From positions 19,314-83,313 of the forward strand of contig URCP01000002.1 of the NCBI GenBank assembly GCA_900546315.1: 64,000 bases of DNA, given 5' to 3'. This DNA comes from an uncultured Eubacteriales bacterium. Lineage in GTDB: Bacteria; Bacillota; Clostridia; Oscillospirales; CAG-272. Below the pieces are notes generated by a model. That model had not been told where the DNA came from and made no database searches. It saw only the letters and a list, made by a program, of their open reading frames with translations. Made by a program: the position numbers and the translations under genes. Positions within the stretch are counted from its first letter, which is position 1. Each line of letters opens with the position of its first letter. This document shows, one piece after another, positions 6,196 to 61,625 of this stretch.

Positions 6196-7701
6196 TTACC
6201 CTATTGATGACAGATCATCAAGCAGCTTATCGATCTGTTTTCTGAAAGTCTTCTCTTTCTTCGCGTATGTCGACGACAGATTGCCAGATTTGAATGCGTC
6301 CCAGAGTATCTGATTGCCGCCGAGGCCGAATACGTCTGAAAGGTCATACAGCATCGAACTCTTTATCACGTCCAGCATCTCGATCGCCTTGTCGTCTCGG
6401 AGGCGCTTTCCTTTGACTGTCGTCTCGTAATACGCCGGAAGCAGCGTCTGGTGCGACAGCCAAGCCGAATACTCGAGCACCGCGCCGACACGCTCCATAT
6501 CCCCGGCGCACACCGGCACCGCGAAGATCAGAGCGAATAAATCGATCTTATGGTGATAATTCTCCTGATTCTCGTCATACTTCGGATTCGGGACAAGACC
6601 GAAATCCTGCTTCATATCGCGGAAGCATTCCATCGAGGCGATGCCGCTCTGATAGAACAGAAAATGTCCGTCAGCGAAGAGTGCGCGCGGGTAATCATAC
6701 TCATTCGCGTATCCGGTCGTGTCTCCCATACCGAAGAGCTCTTCGCTCGAAATGGCGCAGTCGGTTCCGGTCAGGACAGCGGAGCACTTTGTTATCATGT
6801 CCTGTACCTTTTCGGTCATGATATTGGGAATGATCACGTTTTCCGTATCCTTTACGGCGAGGCTCACACCCGTGCCCGCGACGAGATACACGAAAGTGCC
6901 GTTGTAACTGTCGTCGGTGAGCATCCCATATCTGTCGTTCTGGTCAAAGACCGAGTCGCCGTTGAGGTCTTCCGACACCGCGGCTGTCATCTCGAGGACC
7001 TTGTCTATCGTCCACTTATTGTTCTCAACAAGCTGATACGGGTCCTCGAGACCGTACTCATCGATGATGCCCTGATTGAAGTACATGAACCGCGCCGTCT
7101 CGAGATTTCCCATCGAGATGTCGCTCGGCATCAGATACAGTCTACCCTCTATCGTAAGCTCATCCGCCGCGTTTTTGTCCCACCAGTCAGCCGTCAGGTC
7201 CGCATAGTCAAGATCGAGCATATTATAGAGACCTCCCTCGCGCGCGAGTCCGCTGAGCGTCGAGCGCATACTCGAAATGACGTCGATTCCGTCGTCGCCT
7301 GATTGGATATATCCGCGCGCGAGCTTTTCGAGCTCACCTGCCCATCCGCTTTCCCACGCCGGATAAAGAGCTTTTATCTTTATGTTGAACTTTTCCTCGA
7401 CCTGCAGGTTGCGTTTATATATCGCGTCATTCACCGGCTCGCCGTTCTCTTCCTCGGCGTAGACATACTTTTCCATGTAGCTGCTCACGTTTCCGCCGCG
7501 TATGAGATATGTGAATTCCGCTCCTCCGTAATCGAGTTCCGGAATATCCGGCTCAGGGATTGACGATACGGTTGTTCCGGTATCTGTCTCGCTTGTGTCT
7601 TCGGTGCCGGATGTTGTGTCTGTTTCGCCGCTCTGACCGGCGCAGGAAATAAGAATTGTACAGAACAGCATCGCCGCGATAAGTTGTCTGTAGTGTTTCA
7701 T
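6196..7701 (-). CDS. extracellular solute-binding lipoprotein (ABC family-1 SBP type)
   Basis: I chose the start at 7701: MKHYRQLIAAMLFCTILISCAGQ (lipobox). The annotated longer ORF would overlap the upstream gene. Family motifs shared with six paralogs in this window include IYKRNLQVEEKFNIKIKALY and DFGLVPNPKYDENQENY. Confidence 0.8.
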   Translation of the reverse strand: MKHYRQLIAAMLFCTILISCAGQSGETDTTSGTEDTSETDTGTTVSSIPEPDIPELDYGGAEFTYLIRGGNVSSYMEKYVYAEEENGEPVNDAIYKRNLQVEEKFNIKIKALYPAWESGWAGELEKLARGYIQSGDDGIDVISSMRSTLSGLAREGGLYNMLDLDYADLTADWWDKNAADELTIEGRLYLMPSDISMGNLETARFMYFNQGIIDEYGLEDPYQLVENNKWTIDKVLEMTAAVSEDLNGDSVFDQNDRYGMLTDDSYNGTFVYLVAGTGVSLAVKDTENVIIPNIMTEKVQDMITKCSAVLTGTDCAISSEELFGMGDTTGYANEYDYPRALFADGHFLFYQSGIASMECFRDMKQDFGLVPNPKYDENQENYHHKIDLFALIFAVPVCAGDMERVGAVLEYSAWLSHQTLLPAYYETTVKGKRLRDDKAIEMLDVIKSSMLYDLSDVFGLGGNQILWDAFKSGNLSSTYAKKEKTFRKQIDKLLDDLSSIG

Positions 7702-7757
7702 GTCTCCGGTTCCTTTCTCCGTTTTCGGGTGGTTGTTATGCCCGGCGCTGGTTCGGT

Positions 7758-9017
7758 TTACTTGCTGTCGCCGGAAAATCTGCGCTCCAGCGCCTCTTTG
7801 AATTTCCCGAGCGACACCTCGGACGGCGCGTAGTCCGGACGCGAACAGCACGGAATGTTTGGCGGTGTGCCGTCCGGCGTCCAGAATGGGTTCGCGTTGT
7901 CATTCTCGTATTTCAGACAGTCTGACTCGAGCGAGAAGTCCGGAATGTCGAACGGGGCACCGTCGGCGAGCAGACTTCTGTGAGAGAGGATGGCGACCGA
8001 CGCGAGCCTTGTCGCGAACAGCTCATCCATCTCAGGCTTTGCCCCGGTGCGTATCGATTCGAAGAATTTGCGGATGACGAAAAAGTCTCCGCCGCCGTGC
8101 CCGGCTTTTTTGATAAGCTCCGCGTCCTTGTCGGTGAGTTCAGGGTAATATGAGTTCTCGGCGTTCATACCTTCCGGGATCTCCCAGTCGTTGTATCTGA
8201 GCATGATCTTTCCGTCGGTGCCGCGCAGATTTTCTATCTGCCCCTTGGTTCCGCAGACGCGGTAGGAGTTCTCATGCGCGCCGAACGCGGCGCATCCGGT
8301 CACACGGAAGACCGACGCGTCGTCGTTCCGCGTCATGATGATCGCCGCGCGGTCGGCGCAGAATGACGCCGAGACGCAGTCATCCGGACGCGGTATGAAC
8401 ACCGGCATCGCGGTCACGCGGACAGGCTTCGAGCCGGTAGCGTAGCAGAGCGGTCCGAGCGAGTGAGTTATATAATATGTCGCCGGGAGGAAGTTCCTCC
8501 AGTGCCGCACATCGTCTCGGAGAGAGGCGGAATATTCGGCGTTATACAGATCCGCCGGGTGGTTGTACTCGCCCTCTGCGAACATCACCTGACCGAGAGT
8601 TCCTTCTTGGTATACACGGCGGATCTCCTGATTGAACAGCATGAACGGATAGTTTTCCGCGAGCATATAGAATGCCCCGGACTTTCTTGCCGCCCGGACG
8701 AGAGCCACTCCCTCCGCCATCGTGCCGTTCGACGTGCATTCGCTGAGGACGTGAATGCCTTTTTCGAGCGCCTTTATCGCGTATGGCGCGTGCTCGTTGA
8801 AATAGTTCGCGAGGAATACGGCGTCCATCGGATGCTCTATGAACTCGTCAAAGTTGGTGTAGCCTGCCGTCGTACCGCCGAGCTTGCCGGCGGCGGCGTC
8901 CACAAAACGCTGCGCTTTGTCGCAGACGGCGACGATCTCACCGTTGTTTGCCAGTATGTTGTCGAAGTAGTATGCTCCTCGCTGAAGTCCGAATACTCCG
9001 ATACGGATTGTTTTCAT
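7758..9017 (-). CDS. Gfo/Idh/MocA family oxidoreductase
   Basis: MKTIRIGVFGLQRGAYYFDNILANNGEIVAVCDK is an N-terminal Rossmann fold. GGAGGC SD precedes the ATG at 9017. Clear paralog of 52494-53747 (shared HWRN...Y.THSLGP motif). Confidence 0.8.
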   Translation of the reverse strand: MKTIRIGVFGLQRGAYYFDNILANNGEIVAVCDKAQRFVDAAAGKLGGTTAGYTNFDEFIEHPMDAVFLANYFNEHAPYAIKALEKGIHVLSECTSNGTMAEGVALVRAARKSGAFYMLAENYPFMLFNQEIRRVYQEGTLGQVMFAEGEYNHPADLYNAEYSASLRDDVRHWRNFLPATYYITHSLGPLCYATGSKPVRVTAMPVFIPRPDDCVSASFCADRAAIIMTRNDDASVFRVTGCAAFGAHENSYRVCGTKGQIENLRGTDGKIMLRYNDWEIPEGMNAENSYYPELTDKDAELIKKAGHGGGDFFVIRKFFESIRTGAKPEMDELFATRLASVAILSHRSLLADGAPFDIPDFSLESDCLKYENDNANPFWTPDGTPPNIPCCSRPDYAPSEVSLGKFKEALERRFSGDSK

Positions 9018-9080
9018 GGTGTTGCCTCCCAAAATTATATTTGTTCCCGATATTTCATCGGGTCATAAACATATCTGCGC

Positions 9081-9938
9081 TCAGTCAATCAGAACGAGCG
9101 CGAGCATCCCGGCGAAAGCCAGCGCGACCGAAACGAGCTCCCTCGCCCGCGGTTTTTTTGACGTGAAGAAGCAGAGTGCCGTCGACATTATCATGACTCC
9201 GCCGGTCACGAACGGATACTGCGCGGATGCCGGAAGGTGCGCGAGCGATATCAGGAGCAGGAGATTCGCTATGCATCCGAGTATGCCGTTGCCCATAGTC
9301 CCGACGATCATTCCGGCTGACAATTTTCTTTTTTCGCCGCTCCGGAAAAATGGCAGCAGCGCACAGGCGATGACCACCGTCGACGCCGCGCTGAGAACCG
9401 AGTATCCCGCGGCGGATGTTTTCTCAAACGGCGACGCCTGAAATATTTTCGACAGTACGCCCGACATGCCGTTCAGCGCGAAAACTCCGATATAATATCC
9501 GGTTCCGGAACGGCACTCATCCCTCTTTATCGTGACGCAGAGCGCCGCGGTGATGAACAGCAGACACACTATCTTCCCGGCTCTCAGGGGTTCATCAAAG
9601 AAGATGATTCCGGCGGCGAACGGAAGGACCATCCCTCCGAGCATCGAAAACACCGAGTACAGCGATAGATTTATTTTTCCGAGTGCCGTCAGACTGCAAA
9701 ACGTGAAGCTTATTGAATTCACCGCCGACAGTGCCGCCATCAGAAGCGAAAACGCGGTGAATTCGAAACGCAGTCCGTTCATGATGAACAGCACCGCCAT
9801 CCCGGCGAGACTGCTCAGCGCGGAAAACTCGAGGGTCGCGCCGGTCCCGCTTCCGCGGGCGTTCCGGTATATGTTTTTGAAGAAGAACTGTATGCTGAAC
9901 ATCGCGACAGCGGCGGTTATCATTCCGTAATAGATCAT
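9081..9938 (-). CDS. DMT superfamily (EamA/GRP-like) 10-TM permease, subfamily A
   Basis: I chose the start at 9938 (MIYYGMITAAVAMF, AAGGGGA SD). About 285 aa and hydrophobic throughout. The C-terminus LAHLPASAQYPFVTGGVMIMSTALCFFTSKKP is nearly identical in pattern to 55279-56127. Confidence 0.7.
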   Translation of the reverse strand: MIYYGMITAAVAMFSIQFFFKNIYRNARGSGTGATLEFSALSSLAGMAVLFIMNGLRFEFTAFSLLMAALSAVNSISFTFCSLTALGKINLSLYSVFSMLGGMVLPFAAGIIFFDEPLRAGKIVCLLFITAALCVTIKRDECRSGTGYYIGVFALNGMSGVLSKIFQASPFEKTSAAGYSVLSAASTVVIACALLPFFRSGEKRKLSAGMIVGTMGNGILGCIANLLLLISLAHLPASAQYPFVTGGVMIMSTALCFFTSKKPRARELVSVALAFAGMLALVLID

Positions 9939-9959: not shown

Positions 9960-9988
9960 ATTATACCATAACCGCGCCACCAAGGCAA
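9960..9988 (-). promoter_or_regulatory. putative sigma-A promoter for the DMT-Gfo-SBP unit
   Basis: The minus strand reads TTGCCT-N17-TATAAT with an extended -10 (TGGTATAAT), about 20 nt upstream of the 9938 start. Confidence 0.5.
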
Positions 9989-10029: not shown

Positions 10030-10058
10030 TTGAAAACCTCTGCCGGATATGGTATAAT
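10030..10058 (+). promoter_or_regulatory. putative sigma-A promoter for the divergent AraC gene
   Basis: TTGAAA-N17-TATAAT with an extended -10 (TGGTATAAT), 49 nt upstream of the ATG at 10107. Confidence 0.5.
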
Positions 10059-10106: not shown

Positions 10107-10916
10107 ATGAGGCAGACAGGTCCCAACATATGTAAATATGTTACCAGACAGTCGGACGAGCAGCTGACGACGATAAATTTCGTGCTTGAACAGAACGCCG
10201 CGGTCGACGGTATAAAACAGCTGCGGTCATGCGATATAATGTACCTGATGGTCGGCGGAAGCGGGCGGCTCGTAACCGATACGCAGAGCTTCGAGCTCAC
10301 GGCGGGAACCCTGTTCTTCACGTTCACCGGGGTTCCGTACACCATCATAGATACCGACAACATGGTATATATGTATATAAGCTACCGCGGGCGGCGCGCG
10401 TCCGAGCTTTACGGTCAGTTCGACATATCGCAGTCGAGGTGTGTATTTCCCGGGTACTCTGGTCTCGTGTCCTTCTGGAAGAACGCTATCGGGCGTGCTG
10501 CCGAGCGGAACCTTGATCTTATAAGCGAGAGCGTTCTCCTCTATTCCTTCTCCAGAATGACAAAGCCGGACGGACAGAGCAGGGAGAATCTGACTGAGAA
10601 GATGATCCATATGATAGAGACGGAGTTCACGGACAGCGGCTTCACCCTCGACTCGTGCGCCGAGAAACTTGGATATAACGCGAAGTATATCTCACGGATA
10701 TTCAGACATGGGGCAGGCGTCACTTTTTCGGAATATCTCAGGGACGCGCGCATAAGACACGCGATATTCCTGATTGAGCAGGGGGTCAGTGTTGTCAAGA
10801 ATGTCGCGATTCTCTCGGGATATAGTGACCCTCTGTATTTTTCGAATGTGTTTCACCAATCGGTCGGAGTCCCTCCGAGCGAATATATCCTGCGCCACGG
10901 CAAACAGGATGATTGA
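10107..10916 (+). CDS. AraC family transcriptional regulator (N-terminal cupin-like sensor, C-terminal HTH)
   Basis: The C-terminus LGYNAKYISRIFRHGAGVTFSEYLRDARIRHAIFLIEQG...ILSGYSDPLYFSNVFHQSVGVPPSEY is a canonical AraC HTH pair. AAAGGAGA SD upstream. Confidence 0.85.
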   Translation: MRQTGPNICKYVTRQSDEQLTTINFVLEQNAAVDGIKQLRSCDIMYLMVGGSGRLVTDTQSFELTAGTLFFTFTGVPYTIIDTDNMVYMYISYRGRRASELYGQFDISQSRCVFPGYSGLVSFWKNAIGRAAERNLDLISESVLLYSFSRMTKPDGQSRENLTEKMIHMIETEFTDSGFTLDSCAEKLGYNAKYISRIFRHGAGVTFSEYLRDARIRHAIFLIEQGVSVVKNVAILSGYSDPLYFSNVFHQSVGVPPSEYILRHGKQDD

Positions 10917-10921: not shown

Positions 10922-12724
10922 TCACGTCTCCGCTGTCTTATAATACTTAGCCTGCGCCATATAAAACGAATTGTAATCCGGGCAGGTCTTCATCAGTTCC
11001 TCATGCTTTCCGCTCGCCGCGATGTGGTTATCTTTAATGAAAACGACGGTGTCCGCGAGAGCGGCGCTCAGCAGGCGGTGCGACACGTAGAATATCATCC
11101 GCCCGGCGGAGATCGACTGGAGCAGCCCGAAGAACTCGTCCTCGGCAAGCGGGTCGAGCGCCGACGACGGCTCGTCGAGCAGCAATATCCGCGCGTCCCT
11201 GAAAAGCGCCCGGGCGATTGACAGTCTCTGGAGCTGACCGCCGGACATTATGACGCCGTTCTCGTCGAATTCCTTTCCAAGCTGAGTGTCGACGCCGTCC
11301 GGCAGACCGGCTATGTAATCGCCCATCCCGAGGTCGGAGAGTATCGACGTTATTTTTTCTTTCTGTTCCGCGCTGCCGTCGTATCTGTCGAGCGCGATGT
11401 TTTCCGCTATGCTCATCGCGAAGACGTGCGTCTGCTGGAACACCGACGAGAACATTCCGCGGTACGCGTCAATGTCAAAATCACGTATCGGCATGCCGTT
11501 ATAGGTTATCCTGCCGTCTGTGACGTCGTACAGACGACCTATCAGGTTGAGCAGTGTCGTCTTTCCCGCGCCGTTCGCGCCGATGACGGAGTATACCTTT
11601 CCGAGATGGAATGAGTAATCAATATTTCTGAGCACCTCCGGACCGTCGTCGCTGTAGCGGAACGACACGTTCTCAAGTCTTATCTCCGCCGTGTCAGAGG
11701 CAGGGATTTCCTTTATAAGCCCGTCGCCCTTCCAGCTCTCGATGTTCGATTTCAACCCCATGAAGTCGACCCACGCGCGGATATACCTCGATTCGTTCGT
11801 GAAATACGTGAAAAAGTCCATGACGCTCTTTATCGACGCCGTCAGCTGTCCCGTCGCCTGAAAGCCCTGTGTGAACATACCGATAGTGATCTTCCCGGCG
11901 AGCACGCGGAACGCGAGATAGAGGTATATCGCGTAATCCTTTATTATCGACAATATTTCGACCGGGGCAGTCACGCCCGCGACGTAGTTGTTCAGCTTCT
12001 GTTCATTCGCGAGCAGCTCGCCGTACTTTTTCTCGTGCTTCGCGACGAGCCAGTCGTGTATGCGGAAGAAGCGTATCTCCTTGCGGAAGTCCTTGTTGCT
12101 GAAGACCCCGGCGAAGTAGTTTTCCGCGCGGAACAGCGTTTCGGAGTACATATGATTCTCAAACACGCGCTTTTCGATATGAGCCGACACAATAACCGAC
12201 GCGACCGCGAAGACGACCGATATCGGGACAAGCCAGAGATTCACCTCGGCGAGGATAATGATAGTCGTTATAAGCATCGGTATCGCGGAAAAAAGCCTCA
12301 TGACGCGGTTTGTGACCTGATTTATAGTCCCGCGGTTGTTGACCTCCGCCGCGAGAGCCGACAGGTCATGCACGGCGGGAGATTCCACCTGCGCCATGTC
12401 GAGCTCCGCCATCTTTGAGGTGCGCTCAATCCGCACGTGGTTCTGGAGGTGCGACAGACGGAAGCCGAGTGTCTCGGTTATCTTCTCGACGACACAGATA
12501 AATATCGCCGATATTGCCATAACGGCGACGCATATGATGATTTTCGTGATATTCCGGTCCCCGACGAACTCATCGAGGATTATCTTCGGGAGCCAGAGCA
12601 TCAGCACGGCCGCCGCCGCGTTGCATATCTGCGAAAAGACCGAGAGCATGAAATACCCCGGGTCAAGCCGGAAGAGCCGGGATATATATTTGAATACAAG
12701 TGAGACTTTTCCGAAAAATATCAT
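10922..12724 (-). CDS. ABC transporter, fused permease/ATP-binding protein (exporter type)
   Basis: N-terminal 6-TM domain. Walker A GANGAGKTT, signature SGGQLQRLSIARAL, Walker B ILLLDEPSSALD. The ATG at 12724 with GGGAGAA SD is preferred over the TTG at 12730. Confidence 0.85.
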   Translation of the reverse strand: MIFFGKVSLVFKYISRLFRLDPGYFMLSVFSQICNAAAAVLMLWLPKIILDEFVGDRNITKIIICVAVMAISAIFICVVEKITETLGFRLSHLQNHVRIERTSKMAELDMAQVESPAVHDLSALAAEVNNRGTINQVTNRVMRLFSAIPMLITTIIILAEVNLWLVPISVVFAVASVIVSAHIEKRVFENHMYSETLFRAENYFAGVFSNKDFRKEIRFFRIHDWLVAKHEKKYGELLANEQKLNNYVAGVTAPVEILSIIKDYAIYLYLAFRVLAGKITIGMFTQGFQATGQLTASIKSVMDFFTYFTNESRYIRAWVDFMGLKSNIESWKGDGLIKEIPASDTAEIRLENVSFRYSDDGPEVLRNIDYSFHLGKVYSVIGANGAGKTTLLNLIGRLYDVTDGRITYNGMPIRDFDIDAYRGMFSSVFQQTHVFAMSIAENIALDRYDGSAEQKEKITSILSDLGMGDYIAGLPDGVDTQLGKEFDENGVIMSGGQLQRLSIARALFRDARILLLDEPSSALDPLAEDEFFGLLQSISAGRMIFYVSHRLLSAALADTVVFIKDNHIAASGKHEELMKTCPDYNSFYMAQAKYYKTAET

Positions 12725-12758
12725 TGTCAATTCTCCCGTCGGCGATTGATAAAACCAG

Positions 12759-13538
12759 TTATTCCGCCGCTTTCACAAGCGAATGAAAATCAAGGGGATC
12801 CTCCGCCTTTTGGCACAGTTCGATCAGCGCGTCGTGGCCCTTGCGGACATCAAAACAGGCAACCCTGGCGTTTCCGAGCGTGGAATAGCTCATAACCCCT
12901 TTTTTGTCAAGATAATCCCCGAGCAGCGGGAAATCAACTGAGCTCCAATAAAAACTCGTATTCATATGCAGAAGCTCGTAACGTCTGCCGTCGGCGTCTG
13001 TCGCTACCGCGTCAAAATAAAGATCCGGGTTATCAGGAAACGGGTTGACTTCCTCATCAATCGAGTGCATATAAGTGTTGCGCTCAAGACCGACCCCGAT
13101 CAGCAGTACTCTGGCGTCTTCATCATAAAATCTGCCCCACACCCCATCAACAGGGGTTCTCGAGCGGGTGTTTTCTTCGCCGGTCACATAATCCTTCGCG
13201 CGCTTTCCGAAGACCGCGACCGAGTGAGTCGGATGCAGCGAGCGGATAGCGTTGCCGCGTCTGAACGTCTCTTTCGCGCAGATCTGCGGAAATACCCCGA
13301 TATTCGGGACAGATTCGCGGACATCGTATACCGGGTTATCGCGGTTGATCACTGCCCATGTATGAGTCGGAACAATAAGAAGCCCTTCAGGAAGCAATTC
13401 TGTATAGTAATCGAGCAGTCCTTCTGCTCCGCCCTCAATTCCGCCGATGCTTTTCAGCGAGGTATGGACAGCGACCGTGCTGTCAGGGCATATTCCGAGT
13501 TCGTCAAACATTTTTTCTACGTCTTGCCTGTTTATCAT
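12759..13538 (-). CDS. aminoglycoside 3-N-acetyltransferase (AAC(3)/Antibiotic_NAT) family protein
   Basis: The 259-aa protein begins MINRQDVEKMFDELGICPDSTVAVHTSLKSIGGIEGGAEGLLDYY...LIVPTHTW, which is the characteristic AAC(3) N-terminal pattern. Confidence 0.7.
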   Translation of the reverse strand: MINRQDVEKMFDELGICPDSTVAVHTSLKSIGGIEGGAEGLLDYYTELLPEGLLIVPTHTWAVINRDNPVYDVRESVPNIGVFPQICAKETFRRGNAIRSLHPTHSVAVFGKRAKDYVTGEENTRSRTPVDGVWGRFYDEDARVLLIGVGLERNTYMHSIDEEVNPFPDNPDLYFDAVATDADGRRYELLHMNTSFYWSSVDFPLLGDYLDKKGVMSYSTLGNARVACFDVRKGHDALIELCQKAEDPLDFHSLVKAAE

Positions 13539-16053: not shown

Positions 16054-17832
16054 TTATTTGTCGTTCTTTTTCTTCCTGCCGACGGCAATGAAGGCTCCGC
16101 CGCAGATGACGCAGATTATACCGATCGTGACCGGGAGTTTATATCCGATGCCGCCGGTGTGCGGGAGCTTCACGTTCGCGAAGTTGACTGTGATGTCGCG
16201 GTCGCAGGTGAAACTATATGACTTATCGCTCTTGGCATAACCTTCAGGAGCCTCTGATTCGACAAGCTCATAGTTTCCGGCTTCGAGTCCGCTGAAAACA
16301 CAATACCCGTTATCATCGGTAGTACCTGTTGCGATTGGAGTCGCGGTTTCACCTTCAACTTTGTTGAGAATGAATGTTGCACCGGCAAGACCTTTCGTTT
16401 GGTTTTCCTGATCATACTTGAAGACCGTGACGGTATACAGACCGACTGTCACGGGAGTCTTTACTGTCGGTGTGAGCTTTGACTCATCGCTGTATGGTCC
16501 GTAGTTTATATACGCCGTGTCGGTGTATTGTCCGCTTAGCCGACCTTCCTTCGGGACCGCGTCAAAGGTCAGGACAACATCCGGCGGGGTTGTTGTTACA
16601 TCTTCAAGAGTGTAATAGCCTTTATTATACAGTTCGACAAGGTTTACTCTCAACTCAAACGTACAGCCATCTGTCAGGTTATCATATTCGACTGTATACA
16701 GGCTATTGTCAATTTCTTTCGATTTGACAGTCAGTTTGAGACTTTCTGGGTCAATACTCAGTTTTGAATCGAGCGTATTATGGAAGACGAGCATATATGT
16801 GCCGCGCTTATTTGCGGACTGGACGCGCTGTACGGACGGACCATCCACAGCCCCGGTGAATGGAATATAATCTCCGATACATTGTGGTACATTTGTGGTT
16901 ATCCTGAACGTGACCTTATTATTGTCCGCGTCGATACTGCCGTCGACCTTGATTCCGACGGAGCTTGTCTTCTGGTCGCTCTCACCGGGATCCGGGTCAG
17001 TACTGCCGGAATCCGTGAAGATGAGCTTATTTTCAGCGTCAAGCGTCGGTTTGTATCCGCTTTGCCCGTCGAGAGAGAAGGCGTTTACCGAGGCTTTGTC
17101 GGTCGCGAGGATATCTCCGGTTGCGGCGATCCCGGTGGCGTTGTCTGTCATATCAATGCCTATATTGCCGGTGAGTTTATCAATGACATTTACCGGAGAT
17201 GCTGAACGGAGGTTGGAATCTTTATTGTCTGCTTTGTTGCCGATAATAGTTGTGCTTCCGGAAACATTGATTTTGCCGTCGCCGGTCACGCGTACTCCGC
17301 CGCCGGTACAGTTTGTTACGGTTACGTCTTTCAGTGTCAGGGTTCCACCGGTTATTTCTATTCCGGCAACTGGATATGAACCTGCCCCATCAATTTTTAG
17401 AGATGCCAATGTAGTGGAACCAGAAATAGCAGTGAAAGGTGTGGTACCTTTATTCGTGATTTCGATATTTTCGGTGGAACCTATGAGCCATACATTATTG
17501 TAGTCATGCAAATCAATCGTAACGTTTTCTGGTATACTGAAACTTTTTGTGATAAAAATCACAGTATTGTTGCTCTGTAAAGCTCCTGCCAATGTCTGCA
17601 CATCCAATATTGGGTTGATAGTGTCAATACAGTCTTCCAATATCTGCTTATCAGAAATAACCGCTTTATAAGCAATTACATCATCACTTTGCGAAACTTT
17701 GAATGTGTCGCTGCTGTCAAACGGGTTCACAAGCGTAATATTTTCCTCCGCCGCGACTCCCATACACAAAATCCCTGCCAGAACCATGAACATGGCAAAG
17801 AATAAAACCGAACAAACTGCTGTGCGTTTCAT
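16054..17832 (-). CDS. LPXTG-anchored surface protein: N-terminal beta-helix-like region, pilin-like isopeptide domain and SpaA/Cna-B-type domain
   Basis: Signal peptide MKRTAVCSVLFFAMFMVLAGILCMGVAA. C-terminal sorting signal LPHTGG plus TM plus GRKKKNDK. GLAGATFILNKVEGETATPIATGTTDDNGYCVFSGLEAGNYELVESEAPEGY is a typical prealbumin-like Cna-B/SpaA domain. GGTLTLKDVTVTNCTGGGVRVTG is beta-helix-like. Confidence 0.8.
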   Translation of the reverse strand: MKRTAVCSVLFFAMFMVLAGILCMGVAAEENITLVNPFDSSDTFKVSQSDDVIAYKAVISDKQILEDCIDTINPILDVQTLAGALQSNNTVIFITKSFSIPENVTIDLHDYNNVWLIGSTENIEITNKGTTPFTAISGSTTLASLKIDGAGSYPVAGIEITGGTLTLKDVTVTNCTGGGVRVTGDGKINVSGSTTIIGNKADNKDSNLRSASPVNVIDKLTGNIGIDMTDNATGIAATGDILATDKASVNAFSLDGQSGYKPTLDAENKLIFTDSGSTDPDPGESDQKTSSVGIKVDGSIDADNNKVTFRITTNVPQCIGDYIPFTGAVDGPSVQRVQSANKRGTYMLVFHNTLDSKLSIDPESLKLTVKSKEIDNSLYTVEYDNLTDGCTFELRVNLVELYNKGYYTLEDVTTTPPDVVLTFDAVPKEGRLSGQYTDTAYINYGPYSDESKLTPTVKTPVTVGLYTVTVFKYDQENQTKGLAGATFILNKVEGETATPIATGTTDDNGYCVFSGLEAGNYELVESEAPEGYAKSDKSYSFTCDRDITVNFANVKLPHTGGIGYKLPVTIGIICVICGGAFIAVGRKKKNDK

Positions 17833-20794: not shown

Positions 20795-20897
20795 GATTAT
20801 GACCATACCTTTCGTTATAAATTACAGTTTTGCGAGAGTTAAGGAAACACTGAATTAAGGTTGTTTTCGCGGATTCCGGAAATAAATCTGATAAGTG

Positions 20898-21761
20898 TCA
20901 TACAGGAACACTCAGCAGGATTATTGAGGCGAGCCCGGCGATGAATCCGACAAGTCTTCTGCCTGTCAGCTTCTCGCGGAAGACCACGGCCGACACGAGA
21001 ACCGTCAGAAGAAGCGCGCCGCCATTTGCGACCGGATAATAGATAAGACTGTCAAGAGATCCCGCGAGAGTCAGGTTTATCTGTGAGTAAAAACTGACGA
21101 TCGCTCCGGACGCCGCGCCGAGGAGAATACCGGAGCCGCGGACTCTCCTGCCGCTTCTGCCGTGTACCGCGGCGCGTCCGATAAGAGACAGAATGAACAT
21201 CATCGAACAGGCGGTGAAAAGAAACATCATCCGCTCCCCCTTCGACCCGGAGGTCTGATGCACCTTTTCGACGACGCCCGCCAGACCGGAAAACAGGAAG
21301 CACAGCACGACCATGATAACCCATTTCCTGCCGGCTGCCGTCGCGGTTTCGCCGCGATTCCGCAGCAGCCAGACGGATATAAGCATGACGGCGATACCGA
21401 CCGCCTGAAAACCCCCAAACTTCTCCCTCCAGAATATCGGTCCCGCGAGCGACGGGATAATCATGCCGTAGAGCACGAACAGAGACGTCAGTGACATCGG
21501 CCCTGTCCGCATGGCCGCCACCGAAAGCGCCTGGAGAGAGAACACGAATACCGCGTACACCGCCGCGCACGCGAAGGTGACATATGAGATATCCTTACCA
21601 ACCCCAAGAAGAAAAGTCACAATGGCAGCCGTTCCGTAGGACACCGCGTTGAATGTGAATATCCCGCCGGCATCCGGCTTTTCCGCCTTCGCGAACCTGT
21701 TGTAAATACCGCTCTTGCAGACGCCGAGGACTATCGACAGGAGCAGGAGAACATACATCAT
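20898..21761 (-). CDS. DMT superfamily (EamA-like) 10-TM permease, subfamily B
   Basis: 287 aa, hydrophobic. Shares VEKVHQTSG and YYPVANGG motifs with 39344-40216 (MQKVHQESG, FFPVVNGG). Its ATG overlaps the MerR stop (ATGA at 21758-21761). Confidence 0.7.
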   Translation of the reverse strand: MMYVLLLLSIVLGVCKSGIYNRFAKAEKPDAGGIFTFNAVSYGTAAIVTFLLGVGKDISYVTFACAAVYAVFVFSLQALSVAAMRTGPMSLTSLFVLYGMIIPSLAGPIFWREKFGGFQAVGIAVMLISVWLLRNRGETATAAGRKWVIMVVLCFLFSGLAGVVEKVHQTSGSKGERMMFLFTACSMMFILSLIGRAAVHGRSGRRVRGSGILLGAASGAIVSFYSQINLTLAGSLDSLIYYPVANGGALLLTVLVSAVVFREKLTGRRLVGFIAGLASIILLSVPV

Positions 21762-25377: not shown

Positions 25378-25396
25378 TTTGTAAGAAGGGAAATAA

Positions 25397-38434: not shown

Positions 38435-38457
38435 AGCGGTATACATCTCCTTATATA

Positions 38458-39312: not shown

Positions 39313-39343
39313 TCCTTCTTTTGTGTTTTTTTGCCGGTATTTC

Positions 39344-40216: not shown

Positions 40217-40238
40217 TTGATTTTGCTTTCCCGCTCTT

Positions 40239-45907: not shown

Positions 45908-47376
45908 ATGAAAAAGAAAGACTCATATCACTTCTCCTCGCGATGCTGATTGCGGGGAATCTCATGGCCTCCTGCGGGAACGACAGCGGAACGACAAACG
46001 ACACGACAGACACGCAGACCGACACCGAATCCGGGAGCGCAGAGGAATCGACCGGTCCGTCCTTCCCGGAAATGGACATGGACGGGAAGGAATTCACCAT
46101 TTTCGCCGAGGGCTGGGCGAGCTTCGATCCTCTCTCGATCAACGATATAATGGCGGAGGAGCTGACCGGTGATTCTCTGAACGACGCCATATACAACCGG
46201 AATGTAAAGGTTGAGAAGCAGTATAACTGCAAAGTCTCATTTCTCGAAGTTGGTGACACAATCGCCGCTCATAATCAGCTAAAGCAGTCGGTCATGGCGG
46301 CTGACCAGTCGTATGACATCGCGATCATCCGTACCTACAACTATTTGTCTGCGATAACAAACGGACTTGTCATGGATATCTCCGACATACCGAATACCGA
46401 CCACACACAGCCGTGGTGGGATCAGAATTCTCTCGACTCGCTGTCCGTCGGCGGCAAGGCTTACGCTATATGCAGTGACATCACGATGAACGACGAGAAG
46501 AGCATCTGGTGCGTGTTCTTCAACAAAAAGATGATAGACGACTACAACCTCGACGACCCGAACAAGCTCGTCGCGGACGGTACGTGGACCTATGACAAGC
46601 TCTTCACAATGGCTGAGACCGTGTCGGCTGACCTCGACGGGAACGACAAGCGCGACGAGAAAGACAGATACGGCATCGGATATATAGGCGACAGCTCAAC
46701 CCCGATCTGCATGAGCGTCGGCATAAAGATCGCCGAGAAGAACAACGAGGACCTGCCGGAGTTCTCGTTCGACAAGGGCGAAAACATTTCGAGATATCTT
46801 GAAATATTCACGAAGCTCTACAACGACGATATCGCCTACGACTGGCACACGCGTCAGGGCTTTGCGGGCGAGACGGATATCTTCACGAACAGTCAGGCGC
46901 TGTTCTGTCTCGGCGGCGTGTATTACGCTTCTCTCCTGCGCGATATGAAGGACGATTTCGGAATCATCCCCTACCCGAAGTATGACGAGACGCAGACTGA
47001 GTATATCTCGTCGGCAAGCTCGAACTTCCTGAGCGTCTGCGCGGTTCCGGTGACGAACGACGACCTCGAGAACACCGGCGCGTTCATGGAATACTACGCG
47101 TATCTCGGCTATACGGACATCCGCCCGCAGTTCTATGATGTCCTGCTTCAGGGCAAGGTCGCGAGGGACGACGAGTCGGTGAAGATGCTTGACACACTGT
47201 TCGGCACGGTGACATATGACCTCGGCGGAATATTCGATTTCGGCAGATTCGGAAGCGAAATCCTCGAGATGTGCAAAAAGGAAGACCTCAATATTGCCTC
47301 GAAAGTTGAGAAGAAGAGAAAGTCAATCAATAATGATATCGACAAGCTTATAAAGGCAGTAACCGAAACCGAATGA
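45908..47376 (+). CDS. extracellular solute-binding lipoprotein with its signal peptide disrupted by a -1 frameshift in a homopolymer run
   Basis: The ORF-track start at 45943 (MLIAGNLMASCGN) lacks a charged n-region. The ATG at 45908 is out of frame. Adding one A to the A5 run at 45911-45915 gives MKKERLISLLLAMLIAGNLMASCGN (canonical lipobox signal). Family motifs IYNRNVKVEKQYNCKVSFL and DFGIIPYPKYDETQTEY. Confidence 0.75.
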
Positions 47377-51293: not shown

Positions 51294-52316
51294 TCACGAG
51301 AAGACCGACTCAACGATTACTCGCTTATTGTCCGGATATACCCGGTTTTTCAGATACCCGAAAGCGAGATCGACCGCCGTGAATCCCTGATTGTATATAT
51401 CCTGCGTGCAGCGGTACGCGATGGTGCCGTCCGGAGTCCACTGTCCCTGCTCCGGTCGTATATCGTGGCAGAAGCATCTGACCTTGTCTCCGAGCCCGGA
51501 TTTCTTCAGCGCGAGCGAAAGAGCCGGAAGACCCATCGGAACATACAGAAGCGATTCCCGATCGCCCGGAACAACATCGGTCATGAGTGACGCCAGATAT
51601 GACGGCAATGTCTTCGGCGAATACATTCTCTCAGGGTCAAGCGGAAGCGTTACCGGGCTGTAACCGCTCATAGCGTCGCGGAATCCGTTTATTCTCTCCG
51701 ATATGTTGAAGTTCGACCCAAGCGACAGCATGAAAATATCGGGGCGATACGCGAGGTTTCTTATATATTTCATCGCGTGCTCCGCCATCCTCCGTCCGTC
51801 GCCGTATGAGTCCGCGCCGACGTAAAACGCGTTTTGTATATCGGCGTACTCCGAGAGCAGGATGACGAACCGCGACGTGTCCGCGCAAAGCGCCGAGACG
51901 CGCTTCTTCACGGCGTCCGTCGCGGCGGCGGCGATGATCACGCAGCGCGCGTCCATATATTCGGCCTCGTCGAGGTAGGACAGAACAGTCTCCTCATCGT
52001 GCAGACGCGAGTAGGCGTTGCATTTCACGACAGATTCCGCTCCGGGACCGTGTCTCGTGATCGCGTCGCCGATCCCGCGCCACATCTCCTGCCAGAAAAA
52101 CGACGGCATATCCGGGATTATGCAGTATACCGAGCAGGTCCCGGTCGGGCGGAGCTCGTTTATGCCCTTTGCCGCGCGAAGAACCCGCTGCCTTGTCTCG
52201 GTGTTGACCCCGAAACAGTGGCGGAGAACCTTCGAAACGGTAGAGCGGCTGACATCAAGCTCAGAAGCAAGCCGCGCGAGAGCCGTCTCATCATATCGGT
52301 TGTCTGACGTTTGCAT
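51294..52316 (-). CDS. LacI family transcriptional regulator
   Basis: Start at 52316 with an AGGAGG SD. The HTH is LARLASELDVSRSTVSKVLRH, followed by a periplasmic-binding-protein-like sugar sensor domain. Confidence 0.8.
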   Translation of the reverse strand: MQTSDNRYDETALARLASELDVSRSTVSKVLRHCFGVNTETRQRVLRAAKGINELRPTGTCSVYCIIPDMPSFFWQEMWRGIGDAITRHGPGAESVVKCNAYSRLHDEETVLSYLDEAEYMDARCVIIAAAATDAVKKRVSALCADTSRFVILLSEYADIQNAFYVGADSYGDGRRMAEHAMKYIRNLAYRPDIFMLSLGSNFNISERINGFRDAMSGYSPVTLPLDPERMYSPKTLPSYLASLMTDVVPGDRESLLYVPMGLPALSLALKKSGLGDKVRCFCHDIRPEQGQWTPDGTIAYRCTQDIYNQGFTAVDLAFGYLKNRVYPDNKRVIVESVFS

Positions 52317-52390: not shown

Positions 52391-52419
52391 TTAACAAAAA
52401 CGAAACACTCTGGTATAAT
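52391..52419 (+). promoter_or_regulatory. putative sigma-A promoter of the Gfo-SBP-DMT unit
   Basis: TTAACA-N17-TATAAT with an extended -10 (TGGTATAAT), 75 nt upstream of the ATG at 52494. Confidence 0.55.
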
Positions 52420-52425: not shown

Positions 52426-52437
52426 ATAATCGATTAT
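52426..52437. promoter_or_regulatory. candidate LacI-family operator
   Basis: ATAATCGATTAT is a perfect 12-bp palindrome with a central CG. It starts 7 nt after the -10 hexamer, at the expected transcription start, and lies between the divergent lacI-family gene and its likely target operon. Confidence 0.5.
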
Positions 52438-52493
52438 AGCACACTTCGACTGAAAAGTCAATCCTCAAAAAAACAAAAAGGAGAAAACACATC

Positions 52494-53747
52494 ATGTCTG
52501 AAAAACTCAGAATAGGCGTCTTCGGCGGTTATCGCGGAAGTTCGATGATACAGGTGCTGCTGCATCACCCGGATGCGGAGCTCGTCGCGGTCTGCGACAA
52601 ATATCAGCCGCTGCTCGACAAGGCAAAGGCGGAAGCGGAGGCGGCGGGGCTTAATATCCGCGTCTTCAACAATTTCGACGATTTTCTCGCGTATGACATG
52701 GACGCGGTCGTCCTCGCGAACTACGCGACAGAGCACGCGACCTTCGCCATCCGCTGCCTCCGCGCCGGAAAGCACGTCATGAGCGAGGTGCTCCCGAGCG
52801 AGACTATGGCGCAAGCCGTCGAACTGATCGAAACGGTCGAGGAGACCGGGCTCGTCTATACCTACGCGGAAAACTACTGCTATATGGACCTGACCTTCGA
52901 GATGTGGAGAAAATACCGCGAGGGCGAAATCGGAGACGTCACTTACGCGGAGTGCGAGTATGTGCATGACTGCGCGTCCTGCTGGCTCGACATCACGTAT
53001 GGCGACCCGAACCACTGGAGAAATCACCTTTGCCCGACCTTCTACTGCACGCACTCGCTCGGTCCGATCATGACTATAACCGGTCGCCGTCCGGTGCAGG
53101 TCGTCGGCTTCGAGAACCCGCCGATCGAGGAATTCTATCACCTCGGTCACGCGGGAGGGCACGCGTCCGGCATCGAGATGGTGACGCTCGACAACGGCGC
53201 GATTGTCAAGAGCATTCACGGTCCGCTGAAGCTCGAACCGGCTCACACCGATTACAAGGTCTACGCGACGAAGGGATATCTTGGCACATCAGGGAACAAT
53301 GTCCGCCTGTACAAGGAGGGTCCTCAGACCTGTCAGGGCGAGAACACGTATTACGAGCCGGAGAAGTTCGTCTCCCCCGACCTCGCGAAGAACAGCGGCA
53401 TGGCGTCGCACGGCGGAAGCGACTTCTACCCGACGCACTTCTTCATCGAGAAGATACTCGGCAGACCGGACGGAAAATGGGCGATCGACGTATATCAGGC
53501 GGTCGACATGGGAATCTGCGGAATACTCGCGTTCAGGTCGATCCTCACCGGGAACAAACCGATGAAGGTTCCGGATCTGAGAGACCCCGCGCAGCGCGAC
53601 GAGTGGAGACACGACAACGCCTGCACAAACGCCGCCGTCGCCGGAGATCAGGTCCTGCCCTGCTCATCCTACCCGGAGAGACCGGTTCCGGCGGAGGAAG
53701 CGGCAGCGAACCGCGCGAAGTGGCTTGAGACACATTCCGAAGACTGA
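52494..53747 (+). CDS. Gfo/Idh/MocA family oxidoreductase
   Basis: MSEKLRIGVFGGYRGSSMIQVLLHHPDAELVAVCDK (Rossmann fold). HWRNHLCPTFYCTHSLGP is shared with 7758-9017. AAAGGAGA SD. Confidence 0.8.
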   Translation: MSEKLRIGVFGGYRGSSMIQVLLHHPDAELVAVCDKYQPLLDKAKAEAEAAGLNIRVFNNFDDFLAYDMDAVVLANYATEHATFAIRCLRAGKHVMSEVLPSETMAQAVELIETVEETGLVYTYAENYCYMDLTFEMWRKYREGEIGDVTYAECEYVHDCASCWLDITYGDPNHWRNHLCPTFYCTHSLGPIMTITGRRPVQVVGFENPPIEEFYHLGHAGGHASGIEMVTLDNGAIVKSIHGPLKLEPAHTDYKVYATKGYLGTSGNNVRLYKEGPQTCQGENTYYEPEKFVSPDLAKNSGMASHGGSDFYPTHFFIEKILGRPDGKWAIDVYQAVDMGICGILAFRSILTGNKPMKVPDLRDPAQRDEWRHDNACTNAAVAGDQVLPCSSYPERPVPAEEAAANRAKWLETHSED

Positions 53748-53772
53748 TATACCCGAAAGGAGAACCATTAAT

Positions 53773-55227
53773 ATGAAACCGCGGAAGAACAGACTGTATG
53801 CCGCCATTCTTATCTCCCTGCTCACACTGAGCTCCTGCGGCGGCACAATCAGCGACACAGAGACAGCCGAAACAAACAATGACACGACAGATGAAGTCAC
53901 GACTGAAGCGGCAGAAAAACCGGAAATACCGGAAAACACGAACTACGAAGGGTACACCTTCCGTATACTGACCCGACCAGGAATGCGCCTCGACGAGGTA
54001 TACGCGGAGGAAGCCAACGGAGATATACTATCGGATTCAATCCATAAGCGCAACAGAGAGGTCGAGGATAAGCTCGGGATGAAGTTCGATTTCATCGTCA
54101 GCAGCAGCGACTACGAGACAGACGGATTGAGTCCGATCCTCGCCGGTGAGGATGAATATGACGCGATATCGACCTGCGGACGGTTAAGCTTTGTTTACGC
54201 GCAGAACAAGGCTGTTATGAATATATTCGACGTCCCATATATCGACCTCGACAAGAGCTGGTGGAATGAGGACATCGCCGACAGTCTCTCGATAAACGAA
54301 AAGCTGTACGGCGTTTCAGGCGATATCTCATACGCGACGCTTGATTCCTCGTTCGGTGTGGTATTCAATAAGAAGCTTTTCGATGACTACGGGCTTGAGT
54401 ACCCGTATGAGATGGTGCTCGACGGCACGTGGGTGTATGATAAGTTTGAGACATACGCGCGAAGCATCGGACAGGATCTGAACGTGGACGGGAAGATGGA
54501 TATCGCCGACGATCTCTTCGGCTACGGCGCGCATATGTGGATGGGCGGCGTCGAGGCGCTCTACAGTACCGGCAGCCGTGTCGTCACGACCGACTCCGAA
54601 GGGTATCCGAGGCTTTCGTTCTACAACGAAAAAGTCGTCGATATATACGACAGGTATACGGCGCTCGTAAGAAGCTCAGAGTGCTGCCACTTACAGCCAA
54701 TGGGCGACGACTATCTGCGCGCGTTCTGTTCCGGGCGGGTTGGCATGGCGGACACAAACATACGCAGTATGATTGAGGGGCATTTCCGCGACGCGGATGT
54801 CGATTACGGATTCGTTCCGTTCCCGAAGTATGACGAAAACGTCGAAAAGTACTACTCGTTCGTCGACGCAGGTCAGAGTCTCTGGGTTGTGCCGGTGACC
54901 GTCTCTGACTCCTCCCGCACAGGCGTCGTGCTTGAGACGATGGCATATCTCGGTCAGAAGTATATAATCCCGGCTTATTACGACGTCACACTCCAGAAAA
55001 AGTATATGAGAGACGAGATGTCAATAGAAATGCTTGAGATTGTAAAGGATGGAGCAACATTCGACTTAGGATACTACAACAGCGAGCAGTTCGGCGGCAG
55101 CCTGGCGAACCCGGGAGCCGATTTGATGGCGAACAAGACGATGACCATAACATCGCTCTACAACAAATACGAGCAGTCGGTGAATACGCTCATCGACAAG
55201 TCGATGATATTCTACCTTGAGGACTGA
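53773..55227 (+). CDS. extracellular solute-binding lipoprotein (ABC family-1 SBP type)
   Basis: Start at 53773 gives MKPRKNRLYAAILISLLTLSSCGG (lipobox) with an AAAGGAGA SD. Family motifs IHKRNREVEDKLGMKFDFI and DYGFVPFPKYDENVEKY. Confidence 0.8.
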   Translation: MKPRKNRLYAAILISLLTLSSCGGTISDTETAETNNDTTDEVTTEAAEKPEIPENTNYEGYTFRILTRPGMRLDEVYAEEANGDILSDSIHKRNREVEDKLGMKFDFIVSSSDYETDGLSPILAGEDEYDAISTCGRLSFVYAQNKAVMNIFDVPYIDLDKSWWNEDIADSLSINEKLYGVSGDISYATLDSSFGVVFNKKLFDDYGLEYPYEMVLDGTWVYDKFETYARSIGQDLNVDGKMDIADDLFGYGAHMWMGGVEALYSTGSRVVTTDSEGYPRLSFYNEKVVDIYDRYTALVRSSECCHLQPMGDDYLRAFCSGRVGMADTNIRSMIEGHFRDADVDYGFVPFPKYDENVEKYYSFVDAGQSLWVVPVTVSDSSRTGVVLETMAYLGQKYIIPAYYDVTLQKKYMRDEMSIEMLEIVKDGATFDLGYYNSEQFGGSLANPGADLMANKTMTITSLYNKYEQSVNTLIDKSMIFYLED

Positions 55228-55278
55228 CAATGTTCCGAGAGGCATCCGGAGGAAAATACTATTTACTACGCACTTATA

Positions 55279-56127
55279 ATGACCGCGGTGGTCATGTTCG
55301 GCTTTCAGTTTCTTGTGAGCCAGAAATTCGCGAAGCACACGGGGAGCGGCGCGCGCGCCGCTCTGATATTCCAGATCGGAAGCAATGTCTGCGGTCTCAT
55401 CGTCATATCCGCCGTTTCGATGATACGAAACGGTGGTGTGACGTTCGGCGGCGTGAGCCTGTTCACGCTTCTGATGGCGACTCTGTCCGCGTGCAACTCG
55501 ATCGCCTACACAATATGCAGTCTGAAATCGCTCGGACGGATAAATCTTTCGCTCTATTCGGTCTTTTCAATGCTCGGCGGCATGGTTCTGCCGTTCATTC
55601 TCGGAGTCTGCTTCTTTGATGAGGGAATGAGCTTCGGGAAGCTGCTGTCTGCGGCGCTCATCACGGCGGCGCTCGCAGTCACCATTAAACCCGGCGAGGG
55701 AAAGGCGGGCGTCGGATACTATATAGGCGTATTCGTGCTGAACGGAATGAGCGGCGTCATATCGAAGCTCTATCAGTCCGCGCCGTTCGAAAAGGCGGAC
55801 GAGTACGGATATATGCTGCTCTGCGCGGCGGTTTCCGCCGTTATCTCGGTGGCGGCTCTGCTCTTTGTGAAAGGTGAGTACAAGAAACCGGACAGAGCCG
55901 CGGCGGGGGCAATGGGCATCTGCGGAACGCTGAGCTACGCTGGCAACCTGATTCTTCTGATCGCGCTCGCGCACGTTCCGGCGTCCGCGCAGTATCCGCT
56001 CGTGACCGGCGGAGTCATGGCGGTCTCGACTCTGTTGTGCTTCTTTACCGACAAGAAACCGACTCACCGCGAGCTCATTTCGGTCGCGCTCTCGGTCTGC
56101 GGGATATTCGCGATGATACTTATCTGA
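55279..56127 (+). CDS. DMT superfamily (EamA/GRP-like) 10-TM permease, subfamily A
   Basis: 282 aa. LAHVPASAQYPLVTGGVMAVSTLLCFFTDKKP parallels 9081-9938. In-frame upstream codons ..TIYYALI also match the paralog N-terminus MIYYGMI, but no canonical start codon is present there. Confidence 0.7.
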   Translation: MTAVVMFGFQFLVSQKFAKHTGSGARAALIFQIGSNVCGLIVISAVSMIRNGGVTFGGVSLFTLLMATLSACNSIAYTICSLKSLGRINLSLYSVFSMLGGMVLPFILGVCFFDEGMSFGKLLSAALITAALAVTIKPGEGKAGVGYYIGVFVLNGMSGVISKLYQSAPFEKADEYGYMLLCAAVSAVISVAALLFVKGEYKKPDRAAAGAMGICGTLSYAGNLILLIALAHVPASAQYPLVTGGVMAVSTLLCFFTDKKPTHRELISVALSVCGIFAMILI

Positions 56128-61624: not shown

Positions 61625-61625
61625 A

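Follow-up and report, generated by a model that had tools for sequence, protein, structure and literature searches.

What do two clusters built from the same three kinds of gene do for an uncultured bacterium of the Oscillospirales? The clusters, which we call triads, lie in a stretch of 64,000 nucleotides of contig URCP01000002.1 (the window hereafter), and each of them encodes an enzyme of the Gfo/Idh/MocA fold (GFO), a solute-binding protein (SBP) and a carrier of the drug/metabolite transporter (DMT) superfamily. A preliminary description, made from the DNA letters, suggested that the triads could be an import-plus-oxidation module acting on an unusual glycoside, with an enzyme that starts 3-keto glycoside cleavage in the manner of DgpA. 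Our analysis points to a different chemistry. With a probability of roughly 0.55, we read each triad as a substrate-inducible operon for the uptake of a glycoside and its cleavage in the cytoplasm by an enzyme of the GH109 type (glycoside hydrolase (GH) family 109).

First, we asked whether the triads are built as described. Open reading frames (ORFs) and Pfam matches confirmed both of them, at 6196-9938 on the minus strand and at 52494-56127 on the plus strand, with the permuted transcription orders DMT-GFO-SBP (triad 1) and GFO-SBP-DMT (triad 2). Pfam likewise bore out the divergent regulators next to them, of the AraC family for triad 1 and of the LacI family for triad 2 (Table 1). GFO1 and GFO2 both match the Pfam family GFO_IDH_MocA, and NCBIfam gave a family-level assignment for none of the six triad proteins. 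The start of DMT1 at 9938 agrees with the family consensus MxYYG. The GFO1 ORF spans 7758-9032, and a 419-residue database protein that is 100% identical to it makes 9017 the likely start. By counting gene families, we found seven SBP, four DMT and two GFO genes among the roughly 52 genes of the window; random gene orders gave two such triads in 1.0% of within-window permutations (p = 0.01), a modest support that is suggestive only, and other genomes give a stronger one.

Second, full-length BLASTP alignments agreed with the claim that the triads consist of pairwise paralogs, with 34% identity between GFO1 and GFO2 (E 3e-61), 33% between SBP1 and SBP2 (3e-71) and 55% between DMT1 and DMT2 (3e-92), and the motifs IGVFG, VAVCDK, HWRN and THSLGP were found in both enzymes. 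The pairing of the SBPs is not specific to the triads, because SBP1 is equally close to a third SBP of the window (45943-47376; 32%, 1e-70). We considered a recent duplication of the whole block and rejected it: the three pairs have diverged unequally, the orthologs of GFO1 in other genomes are 52-86% identical to it compared with 34% for GFO2, genes like GFO2 were found separately at two other loci (L010 and L102), and SBP1 is equidistant from six paralogs. These observations argue against the two triads being recent duplicates of each other.

The preliminary description had also read the retention of the same three functions, despite the rearrangement, as a sign that they act together, and had proposed a survey of genomes for the triad. 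By using the DMT family as query against a single genome from each species, we collected 80 DMT loci (1.26 Mb), all from Acutalibacteraceae, Oscillospiraceae or Clostridia metagenome-assembled genomes (MAGs). In 46 of these 80 species-level genomes, a gene of the GFO family lay directly next to the DMT gene and on its strand (40 with the DMT gene first, 6 with the GFO gene first), with a median gap of 25 bp. An AraC homolog was found divergently upstream of the DMT gene in 21 genomes, 20 of which carry the GFO gene downstream and so reproduce the exact layout AraC<>DMT>GFO of triad 1 (20/80 loci). However, tblastn and phmmer detected no SBP homolog at any of the 80 reference-genome DMT loci, which rules out the triad as a widely conserved three-gene unit.

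The full triad was found in the species of the window itself and in two further species only. In the first of these (L172/L173), the order AraC<>DMT-GFO-SBP is kept with proteins 68% (DMT), 82% (GFO) and 61% (SBP) identical to those of the window; in the second (L169), the order is the same and the GFO is 86% identical. At two more loci, with DMT identities of at most 62% (L168 and L174), the SBP gene is gone. Triad 2 was also found in a contig from a strain of the window's own species (L081), with 98.5% nucleotide identity across LacI-GFO2-SBP2-DMT2. In addition, about nine metagenomic loci have an SBP-GFO pair without a DMT gene. The DMT-GFO pair, old and widespread, is the conserved core of the module and the enzyme is its hub, while the SBP is a lineage-specific add-on. 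That the genes are functionally linked is supported by the adjacency of DMT and GFO genes, by the SBP-GFO pairs and by the triad in the two further species. The claim that the same three functions are retained is not supported, given the SBP-free reference loci and the presence in the window of seven SBP paralogs, those of the triads included, at about equal distances from each other.

Then, we searched for the nearest characterised relatives of the enzyme. Single-sequence searches of the PDB ranked GH109 first for both GFO1 and GFO2 (for GFO2, 2ixa at 4e-11 and 6t2b at 2.4e-10). A family profile built from 33 sequences (alignment A2) matched the same two GH109 structures, at 5.8e-26 and 4.4e-24 respectively, over profile positions 2-365, that is nearly its whole length. 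All other Gfo/Idh/MocA structures stayed at or below the strength of 2.7e-14, and in the alignments that we inspected they matched in the N-terminal (Rossmann) part only. The catalytic residues of AmGH109A from Akkermansia are Tyr226, His259 and His404 (PMC10755693). Once the mapping was corrected for a 25-residue offset of the PDB chain, these three residues fell on Y156 (EGEYNH), H190 (YITHSLGP) and H312 (GHGGGDF) of GFO1, and on Y156 (ECEYVH), H187 (YCTHSLGP) and H306 (SHGGSDF) of GFO2, where the AENY motif is also present. The trio, made of the tyrosine, the histidine of the THG motif and the histidine of the GGHGG loop, was invariant in the 33-sequence alignment, and all three motifs were found in 45 of the 58 family sequences checked, including GFO1 and GFO2. 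The GHGG loop, which holds the equivalent of His404, is reported to have been described as the signature of GH109 by Teze et al. in 2020. Finally, precomputed matches to the GH109 C-terminal domain (Glyco_hydro_109_C, PF21252) were found on almost all homologs. From the profile and the motifs, the enzymes of the window look like distant cytoplasmic relatives of the GH109 NAD+-dependent glycosidases; they show a Rossmann fold with its glycine motif, and tightly bound NAD+ is predicted. The clade is large, with 424 clusters at 50% identity (E <= 1e-30).

Do these data leave room for the DgpA-type enzyme first proposed? Such an enzyme, of the DgpA or the BT2158 type, would be a glycoside 3-dehydrogenase releasing a 3-keto-glycoside to be cleaved and reduced by other enzymes. 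DgpA from Dorea and BT2158/BT2159 from Bacteroides do have the Gfo/Idh/MocA Rossmann domain in common with the window enzymes, with C3 oxidation as the first step, and DgpA was among the PDB matches of the family profile (6.8e-14). Also, TIM barrels, the fold of DgpB/C-type lyases, were encoded at 16 of the 80 DMT loci and at one locus of the window, of the order GH36-DMT-TIM-SBP. However, the match to DgpA was restricted to profile positions 1-149, the Rossmann domain, and left the C-terminal domains unmatched. The canonical EKP lysine motif, present in DgpA (HVYCEKP) and in the structures 3ezy and 3v5n, is replaced by HVLSECT in GFO1 and HVMSEVL in GFO2; GH109 itself has MEV or VEV at this position, akin to the SEC and SEV of the window enzymes. 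The NCBIfam 3-dehydrogenase models NF058561 and NF058563 scored only 13-22 bits, compared with cut-offs of 650-750. Moreover, no partner lyase, TIM-barrel or reductase gene was found in either triad, and no lyase or TIM-barrel gene in the operon of any of the 20 minimal AraC<>DMT-GFO loci, while the histidine of the GHGG loop, the acid/base of GH109, is invariant. We consider a DgpA-type enzyme unlikely, and that assignment gives way to GH109, which matches end to end together with its catalytic trio. The 3-keto chemistry proposed with it survives in part, in that the closest characterised relatives pass through a transient 3-keto intermediate.

Structure prediction brought in another candidate. 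The AlphaFold2 (AF2) model of GFO1 (predicted local distance difference test score, pLDDT, 93.8) had 2ixa as its top Foldseek match, over the full length, and the E-values hardly separated GH109 from 1,5-anhydrofructose reductase or levoglucosan dehydrogenase. The fold alone is not decisive, because dehydrogenases score nearly as well in Foldseek, and for the GH109 call we relied on the motifs and the sequence profile. The alternative, an ordinary sugar dehydrogenase or reductase that would use NAD(P) on a monosaccharide brought in by the DMT carrier, would fit this fold and has a parallel in the glcU-gdh operon of Bacillus subtilis, where the gene of a sugar carrier from the DMT superfamily shares a transcript with that of an NAD(P)-dependent sugar enzyme; there, Gdh belongs to the short-chain dehydrogenase/reductase family, not to Gfo/Idh/MocA, and GlcU to PF06800. 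The missing EKP lysine, a full-length sequence match to GH109 alone and the conserved GHGG histidine make such an enzyme improbable here.

The GH109-type reading gains in detail from a comparison with known redox-assisted hydrolases. With Elizabethkingia NagA (2ixa) and Akkermansia AmGH109A (6t2b), the window enzymes have in common the Gfo/Idh/MocA fold, with a C-terminal domain that is probably of the GH109 type, and the lack of the EKP lysine, in addition to the catalytic residues and the end-to-end profile match. They differ from them by their fixed DMT partner, by a conserved tail (PFW...IPCCS.PDY) and by their location. Characterised GH109-type enzymes act outside the cytoplasm. Whereas the profile match starts at residue 19 or 43 of the GH109 chains, GFO1 and GFO2 have no signal peptide and begin directly at the Rossmann strand (MKTIRIGVFG and MSEKLRIGVFG), with the fold starting from residue 8. 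Secretion is a property of the known GH109 members, and one that the window enzymes lack, but not a formal criterion of the family. Signals for twin-arginine translocation (TAT) were reported in 11 of 31 GH109/177/179 proteins of F. sacchari (PMC11535203). A cytoplasmic counterpart exists in the GH188 NAD+-dependent sulfoquinovosidases (SqgA; related to GH177 and GH179, compare GH4), which perform redox-assisted hydrolysis via a 3-keto intermediate (PMC10755693). GH188 structures were among the Foldseek matches of GFO1 (E ~6e-21), with no match at the sequence level. Genes of GH4 were found at 14 of the 80 DMT loci, but this family has a different fold and requires Mn2+.

Since the window enzymes have no signal peptide, their substrate has to be imported. 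We propose that AraC and LacI would each turn on their own operon upon sensing the glycoside or its product. The glycoside would be imported by the DMT carrier, the evolutionarily fixed partner of the enzyme, and the SBP would most likely bind that glycoside at the cell surface and deliver it to a translocator whose genes lie elsewhere, probably an ATP-binding cassette (ABC) permease shared with other SBPs. In the cytoplasm, bound NAD+ would transiently oxidise the C3 hydroxyl of the sugar, the tyrosine would take H2 and the glycosidic bond would be broken by elimination; water would then be re-added and the ketone re-reduced. Overall, a single enzyme would probably hydrolyse the glycoside, instead of oxidising it for a separate lyase, so that neither a separate lyase nor a reductase would be necessary. 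If the enzyme is indeed a cytoplasmic one of the GH109 type, redox-assisted hydrolysis of glycosides would be an everyday pathway inside the cells of gut Oscillospirales, which are abundant and mostly uncultured, and would extend beyond the few mucin degraders that have it as an extracellular speciality. As a module, the pair of carrier and enzyme is widespread and uncharacterised and, with its regulator, is compact and easily expressed and screened, which makes the question of the substrate directly testable.

Which way the DMT carrier transports bears directly on this proposal. Pfam places DMT2 in EamA, as it does 18 of 22 DMT family members, and DMT1 had a sub-threshold match to Multi_Drug_Res as its only Pfam hit. 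We found at least 1532 homologs, in Clostridia MAGs where the source was named. A crude hydropathy scan gave 7-9 hydrophobic segments, and a PDB sequence search returned no relative with a solved structure. We think it most likely that the carrier imports the substrate of the enzyme. Many DMT/EamA carriers export metabolites, which weighs on the other side: the glycoside could enter by the SBP route and be cleaved in the cytoplasm, with the DMT carrier expelling the aglycone or another toxic product, and the SBP-GFO pairs without a DMT gene in some lineages indicate that uptake by another route is possible. Yet the operons of most DMT-GFO loci (46 genomes) contain no further gene for uptake, and one of the 22 DMT family members gives a weak match to GlcU/RbsU, a family of sugar-uptake proteins (PF06800, E 0.0025). 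Although the evidence on import or export is not decisive either way, we regard an exporter as quite unlikely.

Next to the enzyme and its carrier, the SBPs raise a problem of their own. SBP1 carries the lipobox LISC and, after it, a linker of low complexity, and it matched SBP_bac_8 with 25.1 bits, below the Pfam cut-off of 27; SBP2, 33% identical to it, had no Pfam match. The AF2 model of SBP1 (pLDDT 87.5) had oligosaccharide SBPs of carbohydrate uptake transporter 1 (CUT1) ABC importers as its top Foldseek matches, and nearly all of the top 50 were CUT1-type sugar SBPs or MalE fusion proteins. The seven paralogs of the window (about 490 residues; starts 6196, 19352, 23917, 29694, 36985, 45943 and 53770) are 27-35% identical to each other and all have the lipobox and the linker, and three of them lie in loci without a transporter gene. 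By scanning metagenomes with the SBP1 subfamily and adding seven contigs with SBP homologs, we gathered 123 SBP genes at 86 loci (865 kb). No MalF/G-type (CUT1) permease was found by EAA-loop motif or phmmer in the window or in either collection of loci, the 86 around SBP genes and the 80 around DMT genes, which together make 2.19 Mb, and none stood beside any of the 123 SBP genes; the same search did detect MalF and MalG of E. coli.

A binding protein next to a carrier and no permease in sight could mean that the SBP and the DMT carrier form one transporter, a binding-protein-dependent secondary carrier that would be the third class after the tripartite ATP-independent periplasmic (TRAP) and tripartite tricarboxylate transporters (TTT). 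All four DMT genes of the window lie no more than two genes from an SBP paralog (p = 0.04 for random gene order), the two outside the triads (20898-21761 and 39344-40303) each in an operon with one. Such a transporter would account for the absence of CUT1 permeases, and the full triad is retained in at least three species. Against this, the SBP-free reference loci mean that the DMT carrier works without an SBP, an EamA-like carrier stood beside the SBP at no more than one of the 86 SBP loci once the window's own species is set aside, three SBPs of the window have no DMT gene nearby, and the SBP fold is that of ABC importers. In the literature, we found nothing specific on an SBP-dependent DMT carrier or on the present orphan SBP family. 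Each of the two is commonly encoded where the other is absent, which makes a direct partnership very improbable.

The most economical reading would be that these are orphan SBPs sharing a translocator encoded elsewhere. MppA of E. coli, which works with OppBCDF, and the Bug/TctC proteins of the TTT systems of Bordetella and Rhodoplanes are SBPs encoded apart from their membrane component (PMC3173086, PMC5994714, PMC11452294). As with those, the present family has many paralogs, and each has a catabolic or regulatory setting of its own, but its members are lipoproteins of a MalE-like (CUT1) type that bind sugars, and they come from Gram-positive gut Clostridia. Since many sugar loci of these bacteria have an SBP and no transporter, genome-based prediction of carbohydrate uptake, and the calling of 'Gram-positive PULs' (polysaccharide utilisation loci) from complete ABC systems, would mis-score them. 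That no ABC permease was found around these SBPs is the most intriguing point left, and the identity of the membrane partner would decide between one shared ABC permease and something new.

We observed that the SBP genes are frequently organised in tandem arrays, with up to five copies at one locus (L085), or in lone divergent AraC/SBP pairs (L085 and L159). On a human-gut metagenome contig (L159, 8368-14273), divergent AraC/SBP pairs follow each other with no enzyme or transporter gene between them, and it looks as if each SBP there is an independently regulated specificity module. At L085/L086 (6683-16242) and L088, a different Gfo/Idh/MocA gene, of 359 residues, precedes five tandem SBP paralogs of 497 residues, directly 3' of a V-type ATPase operon.

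Several points weigh against the reading of the triads as operons for glycoside uptake and GH109-type cleavage. The window enzymes are only 19-20% identical to the GH109 structures, and PF21252 scores 17.9 bits on GFO2, compared with a cut-off of 27, and is not listed for GFO1; because of this low identity and sub-threshold domain score, we write 'GH109-like' and not proven GH109 member. The near-equal Foldseek scores of the dehydrogenases belong here too. On expression, 31 annotated GH109/177/179 proteins of F. sacchari showed no activity (PMC11535203). The TIM barrels at 16 of the 80 DMT loci, which might serve as lyases or isomerases, make a multi-enzyme oxidative route possible in some lineages. 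Also, the neighbours of the DMT genes are heterogeneous and point to no single substrate: they include glycoside hydrolases (GH4, GH36, GH78 and GH92), esterases (BD-FAE, GDSL, AXE1 and SASA types among them), TIM barrels of the xylose-isomerase-like kind, an FGGY kinase, an arabinose-isomerase-like protein and an aminotransferase-like protein. On the side of transport, the shared permease is an assumption, made with the source genome seen over 64 kb, and no membrane partner of the SBP was found in the data examined.

As to the substrate, the specificity of GH109 for GalNAc and the recurrent fusions of close relatives of the enzyme to one particular GNAT acetyltransferase domain are weak hints that the substrate may be an amino or acetylated sugar. 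The GNAT domain was fused to the N-terminus of three enzyme relatives (P0364, P0395 and P0426) and to the C-terminus of three others (P0389, P0435 and P0446). A free-standing copy of the same GNAT was found in a GH92-GNAT-TIM barrel-DMT operon (L080, 8599-9189), and one further relative (P0451) is fused to GH43. The conserved C-terminal tail of the enzyme family (about 45 residues in GFO1; PFW..DG..P.IPCCS.PDY.PSE) carries a Cys-Cys pair and has no counterpart in the GH109 structures.

To describe how the triads could be controlled, we looked at their signals. Intergenic gaps inside both triads measure 22-56 bp, and the terminator-like hairpin of triad 1 begins 9 nt past the stop codon of SBP1. 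The first gene of each triad is preceded by a promoter-like site that faces the regulator's own. Between AraC and triad 1, the -10 regions of the two sites (9960-9974 and 10044-10058) form a 15-nt inverted repeat, and the control region is almost symmetrical because the two arms are 93% complementary. At triad 2, the LacI ORF extends to 52358, and its 340-residue ortholog in L081 indicates that the start is probably at 52316. The divergent promoter-like sites there, at 52391-52419 (plus strand) and 52433-52461 (minus strand), have between them, and overlapping them, the perfect palindrome ATAATCGATTAT, a plausible candidate for the LacI operator. Both triads have the look of three-gene operons, each with its regulator encoded divergently.

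Table 1. Features of the two triads and of related loci in the window (positions count from the first nucleotide of the window).
Feature	Position	Strand	Basis or remark
DMT1, 285-residue multi-pass DMT/EamA carrier	9081-9938	-	First gene of triad 1; ORF
GFO1, cytoplasmic GH109-like enzyme predicted to be NAD-dependent, Gfo/Idh/MocA fold	7758-9017	-	Second gene of triad 1
SBP1, 501-residue lipoprotein, MalE-like sugar-binding fold	6196-7701	-	Third gene of triad 1
AraC-family regulator	10107-10916	+	Divergent from triad 1; Pfam HTH_18, HTH_AraC, AraC_binding
Terminator-like hairpin ending the triad 1 operon	6157-6187	-	12-bp stem, 9 GC pairs, T-rich tail
Promoter-like site of triad 1	9960-9988	-	TTGCCT-17-TATAAT, extended TG, 22 nt upstream of DMT1 start
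Promoter-like site of AraC	10030-10058		Facing the triad 1 site
GFO2, second GH109-like enzyme, predicted NAD-dependent	52494-53747	+	First gene of triad 2
SBP2, 485-residue lipoprotein, SBP1 paralog	53770-55227	+	Middle gene of triad 2; lipobox LSSC
DMT2, 282-residue EamA carrier	55279-56127	+	Last gene of triad 2; Pfam EamA
LacI-family regulator	51294-52316	-	Divergent from triad 2; Pfam LacI, Peripla_BP_4
Candidate LacI operator	52426-52437		Perfect palindrome ATAATCGATTAT; putative
Third DMT (20898-21761), then SBP paralog (19352-20806)	19352-21761	-	MerR upstream, beta-helix protein downstream
GH36, fourth DMT (39344-40303), xylose-isomerase-like TIM barrel (38458-39312), frameshifted SBP paralog (36985-38461)	36985-42101	-	
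SBP paralog before glycyl radical enzyme	23917-25377	+	Locus without transporter gene
SBP paralog in AraC-GH43-beta-helix locus	29694-31157	-	Locus without transporter gene
SBP paralog 3' of GH32 gene	45943-47376	+	Locus without transporter gene

Among the other SBP paralogs of the window, the one at 36985-38461 is split by a frameshift, with the part for the signal peptide (38051-38461) and the body (36985-38142) in different frames, which makes it a pseudogene unless the shift comes from a sequencing error. The AraC-controlled region 23917-30233 combines an SBP paralog with a glycyl radical enzyme (25397-27550; PFL-like and Gly_radical domains) and with proteins of 666 and 198 residues, both without a Pfam match. 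Next to the AraC gene of triad 1, we found a gene for a fused ATPase/permease of the ABC exporter type (10922-12730) and an aminoglycoside 3-N-acetyltransferase gene (12759-13538), and further along the window a SpaA-type pilin-like protein (16054-17832). Beyond triad 2, the region 56679-63180 holds type I-C CRISPR-Cas genes (cas3, cas5d, csd1/cas8c, cas7 and cas4), and Tandem Repeats Finder detected no CRISPR array within the window. The contig from a strain of the same species departs from the window right after DMT2 (L081 5106-7863, compared with window position 56128 onward). In place of the cas operon, it has an SBP1-like gene (76% nucleotide identity) and an apparent ISAs1-type transposase, the latter judged by eye from its translation.

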